This document shows, piece after piece, positions 454 to 656 of a DNA stretch of 1,281 nt. Origin of the DNA: Escherichia coli (GTDB lineage: Bacteria; Pseudomonadota; Gammaproteobacteria; Enterobacterales; Enterobacteriaceae). A model generated the notes under the pieces. It had not been told where the DNA came from. It made no database searches and saw nothing but the letters and a program-made list of their open reading frames with translations. Made by a program: the position numbers and the translations under genes. How positions within the stretch are numbered: the first letter of the stretch is position 1; each line of letters starts with the position of its first letter. The stretch lies in NCBI RefSeq assembly GCF_003334315.1, contig NZ_QOWR01000118.1. The stretch is one strand, 5' to 3'.

Positions 454-656
454 CAGTCCCTATAAATATTAGAGCAATAAAGAATACTATGCCTGTTGGA
501 AAACATATTACCATCATTCCATAAGACATGAGACTAATTAACTCGCTCACATCACGAGTGGAGTCTAATAGTGAAAGTCTATGCATGGAAAAGAATAGTA
601 TTAAAAGCGATAAAGCCAGCCATATAGCTCTGAATAAAAAAAATAATATATTTCAT
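449..656 (-). pseudogene. Putative Rhs immunity gene (small two-helix membrane protein), apparently frameshifted and 3'-truncated by the IS1 insertion
   Basis: An ATG at 656-654 overlaps the rhs stop (ATGTAATGA) with GGAG 7 nt upstream (664-667). That frame stops after 25 codons ([28 protein letters not shown] at 579-581). The adjacent frame (the rhs frame) is then open for 68 codons from 652 down to a TAA at 449-451 formed by the IS1 terminus (…GGG ACT GGG TAA). A 1-nt change in the A8/T8 run at 636-643 would join the two into MKYIIFLFRAIWLALSLLILFFSMHRLSLLDSTRDVSELISLMSYGMMVICFPTGIVFFIALIFIGTG…, which has two hydrophobic helix-like segments. A 68-codon stop-free stretch in DNA of about 28% GC is unlikely by chance (rough estimate below 1%). 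Confidence 0.4.

Follow-up and report, generated by a model that had tools for sequence, protein, structure and literature searches.

Organization of the rhsC–ybfB junction

The analysed stretch of DNA (1,281 nucleotides, hereafter the window) is the junction of rhsC and ybfB of Escherichia coli, with an IS1 element inserted into ybfB. Outside the IS1 part, window positions 454–1281 were identical to the K-12 rhsC–ybfB region without a mismatch, and the only gap in these 828 bases corresponded to one extra A. The plus strand of positions 1–453 carries the right part of IS1, with the 3' part of insB (ORF 61–438) and the terminal inverted repeat (431–453). Aligned with the IS1A annotated in strain 1008S19, this part showed two mismatches. 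The minus strand of the remainder encodes the 3' end of rhsC (656–1281), which matches K-12, followed by a remnant of ybfB (454–656).

The rhsC translation starts within the conserved RHS core (1109–1281, minus strand), which ends at DPLGL and matched the models TIGR03696 and NF041261. The TIGR03696 match scored 75.6 bits (cut-off 32.5) and ended at residue 57, and the motif PxxxxDPxGL was present at the end of the core. The following 150 amino acids, with nine cysteines, constitute the variable C-terminal (putative toxin) region of RhsC (656–1108 including the stop codon, minus strand). Searches of Pfam and NCBIfam gave no family for this region beyond the RHS core, and no family model for YbfB was found in either database.

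In K-12, ybfB (b0702) is the ORF directly downstream of rhsC and is intact, with 108 codons. The rhsC stop codon in the window (TAA, 658–656) overlaps the ybfB start codon (ATG, 656–654; ATGTAATG), and a Shine–Dalgarno motif read from the sequence (GGAG, 664–667, minus strand) is located 7 nt upstream of this ATG, within the last codons of rhsC. The window shares sequence, position, Shine–Dalgarno motif and the stop/start overlap ATGTAATG with K-12 ybfB, but has T8 for T7, and IS1 replaces everything after nucleotide 202. YbfB has hydrophobic segments at approximately residues 1–23 and 40–67, and a weaker third segment at approximately residues 80–100. ybfB encodes a small hydrophobic protein, with translational coupling to the rhsC end. 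The GC content falls stepwise from the RHS core (0.497) through the C-terminal region of rhsC (0.416) to the ybfB remnant (0.32); that of the IS1 part was 0.55.

Rhs toxin C-termini are reportedly paired with immunity genes located directly downstream (Koskiniemi et al. 2013 PNAS). The locus resembles such toxin–immunity modules in its core ending with PxxxxDPxGL, its variable C-terminal region of lower GC content and its tightly coupled small ORF of still lower GC content. From its position, YbfB is reasonably presumed to be the immunity protein of the RhsC toxin. The locus differs from these modules in that its toxin and immunity roles are presumptive, in that both proteins are without a Pfam or NCBIfam family of their own, and in that frameshifted ybfB alleles coexist with intact rhsC (see below). 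A literature search gave no experimental report on the function of E. coli YbfB. The protein named 'YbfB' in PMC6120080 is an unrelated Bacillus subtilis protein.

The homopolymer tract and the reading frames

Positions 633–645 read AATAAAAAAAATA and contain a run of eight A on the plus strand (636–643), corresponding to T8 on the coding minus strand. Direct reading confirmed this run as described in the initial annotation, which had placed it 13–20 nt into the ORF; these are 0-based offsets, equivalent to nucleotides 14–21 when counted from 1 at the ATG (656–654). The run is the only homopolymer of six or more bases in all 1,281 bases of the window. By chance, A8 or T8 would be expected 0.09 times per window, and at least one such run occurred in 14 of 200 dinucleotide shuffles. 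Given this expectation, the run is only mildly unusual in a segment of 32% GC. The tract matters through where it lies and how it compares with relatives, rather than because it is rare.

The tract covers codons 5–7. Intact ybfB has a T7 run in the same codons (ATT-TTT-TTA), and the window carries one base more. In the A8 allele as written, the frame starting at the ybfB ATG comprises 25 codons (579–656, minus strand). A second ORF of 45 codons (449–586, minus strand) resumes the native YbfB frame with residues 24–67, followed by a glycine and a stop codon contributed by the end of IS1. The exact 45-residue product, a result of the combination of A8 and IS1, was absent from the protein records searched. 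When one A was deleted, a 68-codon frame was obtained (MKYIIFLFRAIW...IFIGTG*), ending at a TAA (449–451) inside the IS1 terminal repeat. This corrected (−1) frame reproduced YbfB residues 1–67 exactly. Removal of one T thus joins the Shine–Dalgarno-coupled ATG to the long frame that reaches IS1, as had been predicted from the letters of the window. The intact 108-codon frame was absent from the window: the +1 change brings in a stop after codon 25, and the gene is cut at codon 68 by IS1.

The tract had been proposed as the frameshift site, and the comparison with relatives upheld this. K-12 ybfB, with T7, is intact, and the tract holds the only gap between the window and K-12. In addition, PGAP had labelled ybfB 'frameshifted' in each of the five A8 records and three A6 records whose annotation was read, so the lesion is effectively already on public record as 'ybfB frameshifted'. 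None of the relatives examined combined A8 with an intact, differently framed gene.

The IS1 insertion

IS1 cuts ybfB after wild-type nucleotide 202, the first base of codon 68, and takes away residues 68–108 of YbfB, including the third hydrophobic segment. Since these residues are removed, ybfB is dead in the window whether the extra A is real or not. The window covers one end of the element only, with the inverted repeat ending at position 453. The adjacent 9 bp (454–462, CAGTCCCTA) are the IS1 target; relatives with an insertion at the same site have a copy of it at either end of IS1, as a duplication.

Approximately 23 complete genomes and many draft contigs carried IS1 at the identical position of ybfB and in the identical orientation, with the CAGTCCCTA duplication. 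The IS1 of these genomes differed from the K-12-type IS1 of the window at 40 of 453 bases. The IS1 copies at this site either arose from separate insertions into a hotspot or reflect the replacement of one isoform by another through recombination. All relatives found with IS1 at this site had A7. A junction of K-12-type IS1 with ybfB was looked for in 5,426 complete E. coli genomes and also in plasmids, phages, metagenome contigs and GTDB species representatives, and was found in none of them.

Tract length in the population

Tract length was determined with exact 88–90-mers centred on the tract in complete E. coli genomes, 2,694 of which contained the locus. Metagenome contigs were scanned with a variable-gap pattern, and 48 contigs were counted. 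A7, the wild-type length, was present in 2,505 genomes (approximately 93%) and 44 contigs. A6 was found in 72 genomes and two contigs, A8 in 40 genomes and two contigs, and A9 in three genomes and no contig. The remaining 74 genomes, and none of the contigs, had other variants, such as SNPs. Of the 189 non-reference 89/90-mers, 115 differed from the reference in tract length only. Of the two A8 contigs, one was a SPAdes contig with 12x coverage. T8 was also present in three NCBI draft assemblies, which were obtained through an 85-aa downstream ORF; this ORF was called in T7 contigs too and is not diagnostic of the frameshift.

A8 is a recurrent and heritable allele of the population. Six genomes had a common rhsC::IS421 junction, and five of them carried A8: one isolate from the USA (2013) and four from Germany (three named 25-xxxxx, and LB858871). 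Strain 14EC007 carried A8 without IS421, on the flanking haplotype of the rhsC::IS421 genomes (2–3 SNPs in 9 kb). In NCTC9967, the flank of A8 was 0.7% diverged, which points to a separate origin. The A6 allele was present in at least 12 genomes of an ST648-type lineage with the same synteny (approximately 273.4 kb from the record end). It was also present in APEC O78, at the canonical kdp–ybfA site. This location, unlike that of the ST648-type cassette, indicates an independent origin of A6 in APEC O78. Both A8 and A6 were inherited within lineages, and both originated two or more times; the tract is therefore a genuine hotspot of slippage. Recurrent inactivation of ybfB in E. coli takes place mainly at the T tract, where approximately 4% of the genomes have A6, A8 or A9.

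In ST648 and IR53017, the cassette of the rhsC C-terminal region and ybfB (A6) was located between rpmE/priA and yiiX/metJ (locus 5734–10252), and not between ybfA/kdp and ybfC. The presence of both parts at this second chromosomal site in ST648-type genomes indicates that the rhsC C-terminal region and ybfB move together.

Sequencing error or mutation

Some of the non-A7 lengths in 'complete' genomes are probably assembly errors, since in the A9 record of SCU-308 frameshifts were annotated in four neighbouring features (an RHS fragment, the IS1 transposase, ybfB and rhsB; 1–3374). The window may hold an error of this kind. In that case, the source genome would have A7, the eighth A would be a homopolymer consensus error and ybfB would be broken by IS1 alone. 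A lone additional A in a homopolymer, with the other 828 bases matching K-12, is also typical of a long-read consensus error, and every relative found with IS1 at this site of ybfB had A7. Since the window reaches 453 bases into the IS1 copy, it may derive from a long-read assembly, a type prone to homopolymer indels. Several of the A8 records come from long-read-era series.

Against an error, A8 was common to clone-mates that were sequenced 12 years apart, and it was found in draft assemblies and short-read metagenome assemblies as well as in assemblies with few frameshifts nearby. The four A8 assemblies inspected had only 1–2 'frameshifted' features per 40 kb each, which suggests that the sampled A8 assemblies were not riddled with errors. 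The frequency of A8 (1.5–4%) was comparable to or above our yardstick, the estimated per-tract error rate of polished assemblies. On balance, an assembly error is a possible but rather unlikely source of the eighth A, and we consider the extra A in the window to be probably biological (roughly 60:30 in favour).

Stability of the tract within lineages

Homopolymers near the 5' end of an ORF set the reading frame in the contingency loci of Neisseria, Haemophilus and Campylobacter. The ybfB tract likewise lies early in its ORF, as contingency tracts typically do. Four lengths (A6–A9) exist in nature, and each frameshift allele is recurrent. A tract toggling ybfB on and off at high frequency could modulate immunity, yet A7 prevailed in 2,505 of 2,694 genomes and 44 of 48 metagenome contigs, and the off-alleles were clonal and stable: four isolates of one clone all had A8, and at least 12 ST648-type genomes all had A6. 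Length heterogeneity at high frequency within lineages or clones, which defines a contingency locus, was thus not observed. Typical contingency tracts are also longer than the 7–8 A/T of ybfB, and G/C runs mutate more readily than A/T runs. Any reversion would moreover be pointless in this window, given the IS1 insertion. With A7 in approximately 93% of the genomes and a constant tract length within the clones examined, the tract does not behave as a fast phase-variation switch, and we regard such a switch as highly improbable.

The initial annotation had left three outcomes for the apparent pseudogene: a real inactivating mutation, a reversible switch or an artefact. The inactivating mutation was the best supported as a class, A8 being heritable and present in short-read assemblies. 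The switch did not agree with the prevalence of A7 and the uniformity of the clones examined, and the artefact is the less probable alternative for this window.

A probable slippage mutation in a decaying gene

The explanation that we favour, with a probability of about 0.6, is that the extra A is real and results from slipped-strand mutation without adaptive value, in a ybfB gene that is decaying and dispensable, and that it is not a regulatory device. The simplest origin would be replication slippage in the T7 run, with a +1 insertion giving T8. The extra T shifts the frame after Phe6 and ends translation after 25 codons, which would make this a null allele of ybfB. IS1 is inserted independently after nucleotide 202, as a second lesion, and leaves the gene doubly inactivated. 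A second lesion in the same gene fits relaxed selection on ybfB. The lesion itself belongs to a common class, the homopolymer frameshift pseudogene, and is read here as ordinary decay in a gene accessory to Rhs. Like other slipped-strand pseudogenes at A/T homopolymers, it is a change of one base that is recurrent in independent lineages and occurs as both +1 and −1, and no feature distinguishes the ybfB tract from this class. Accordingly, the proper annotation of ybfB in this window is that of a pseudogene carrying two lesions, the +1 change in the T7 tract and the insertion of IS1. Beyond annotation hygiene, the importance of the lesion is slight.

Slippage by RNA polymerase on T8 would be compatible with a slippage mutation in a decaying ybfB and would add to it, if some transcripts lost one U and encoded in-frame YbfB. 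T8 is within the range of measurable slippage: with GFP reporters in E. coli, approximately 10% of the expression was restored at poly(T8), through insertion and deletion, and none was restored below T7 (PMC6260861). These reporter figures were obtained with a strong plasmid promoter. In many bacteria, selection against slippery runs is evident from approximately 9 A/T (PMC1088944). The intact rhsC beside A8 ybfB in 14EC007 and NCTC9967 is consistent with a leaky allele. However, intact rhsC was also found beside A6 ybfB (ST648, IR53017 and APEC O78), an allele on which hardly any slippage is expected; the tolerance of a frameshifted ybfB therefore needs no rescue. In this window, rescue would yield only the IS1-truncated product of 68 aa, which lacks the third hydrophobic segment. 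We thus think it improbable that transcriptional slippage contributes here.

In an otherwise intact ybfB, T8 would not be a null allele if slippage restored approximately one-tenth of the mRNA to the in-frame form, an effect that we consider improbable. The change from A7 to A8 would then be a heritable 'dimmer' of RhsC immunity rather than a knockout. A leaky T8 would also help to explain why intact rhsC is kept beside A8 ybfB, a point that is moot in the window because of the truncation by IS1.

Genes rescued by slippage, such as Shigella mxiE (T9), Citrobacter tssM and the poly(A) tracts of endosymbionts, resemble ybfB in having a T run on the sense strand at the frameshift site. The ybfB run differs from these in being below the approximately 9 nt of efficient or selected slippage (PMC1088944), and T8 is a minority allele without evidence of conservation. 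Programmed slippage is defined by a conserved run that is needed for the product, whereas in ybfB the majority T7 needs no slippage to be in frame and T8 is found at 1.5–4%. By their testable defining features, the tract therefore belongs to neither the contingency loci nor the genes with programmed slippage. Ribosomal frameshifting was also considered as a means of rescue and was rejected on inspection of the codon layout: A8 needs a net +1 shift, and the T run of the A6 allele lacks the phasing of an X XXY YYZ heptamer.

Intact rhsC beside frameshifted ybfB

Intact, full-length rhsC was present together with frameshifted ybfB in 14EC007 and NCTC9967 (both A8) and in ST648, IR53017 and APEC O78 (all A6), from no fewer than four backgrounds. 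The presumed immunity gene can thus be lost while the toxin gene is kept. Together with the IS1 cut, the coexistence in these five genomes suggests that ybfB is dispensable in these backgrounds. It further suggests that these strains do not deploy RhsC, or that self-protection does not need YbfB, and bears on the assumption that YbfB is the immunity protein of RhsC.

Two further arrangements were observed in metagenome data. The contig SPAdes NODE_2648 (length 5979, coverage approximately 3) contained A6 ybfB beside Firmicutes-like genes (ribosomal L28, Asp23, FakA and RecG) and is probably a chimeric low-coverage contig. In an ENA metagenome scaffold (approximately 2930–3000), a 47-bp deletion removed the rhsC stop codon, the ybfB start codon and the T tract. 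This deletion fused a C-terminal fragment of RhsC in frame to YbfB from approximately residue 11, and two similar places were seen.
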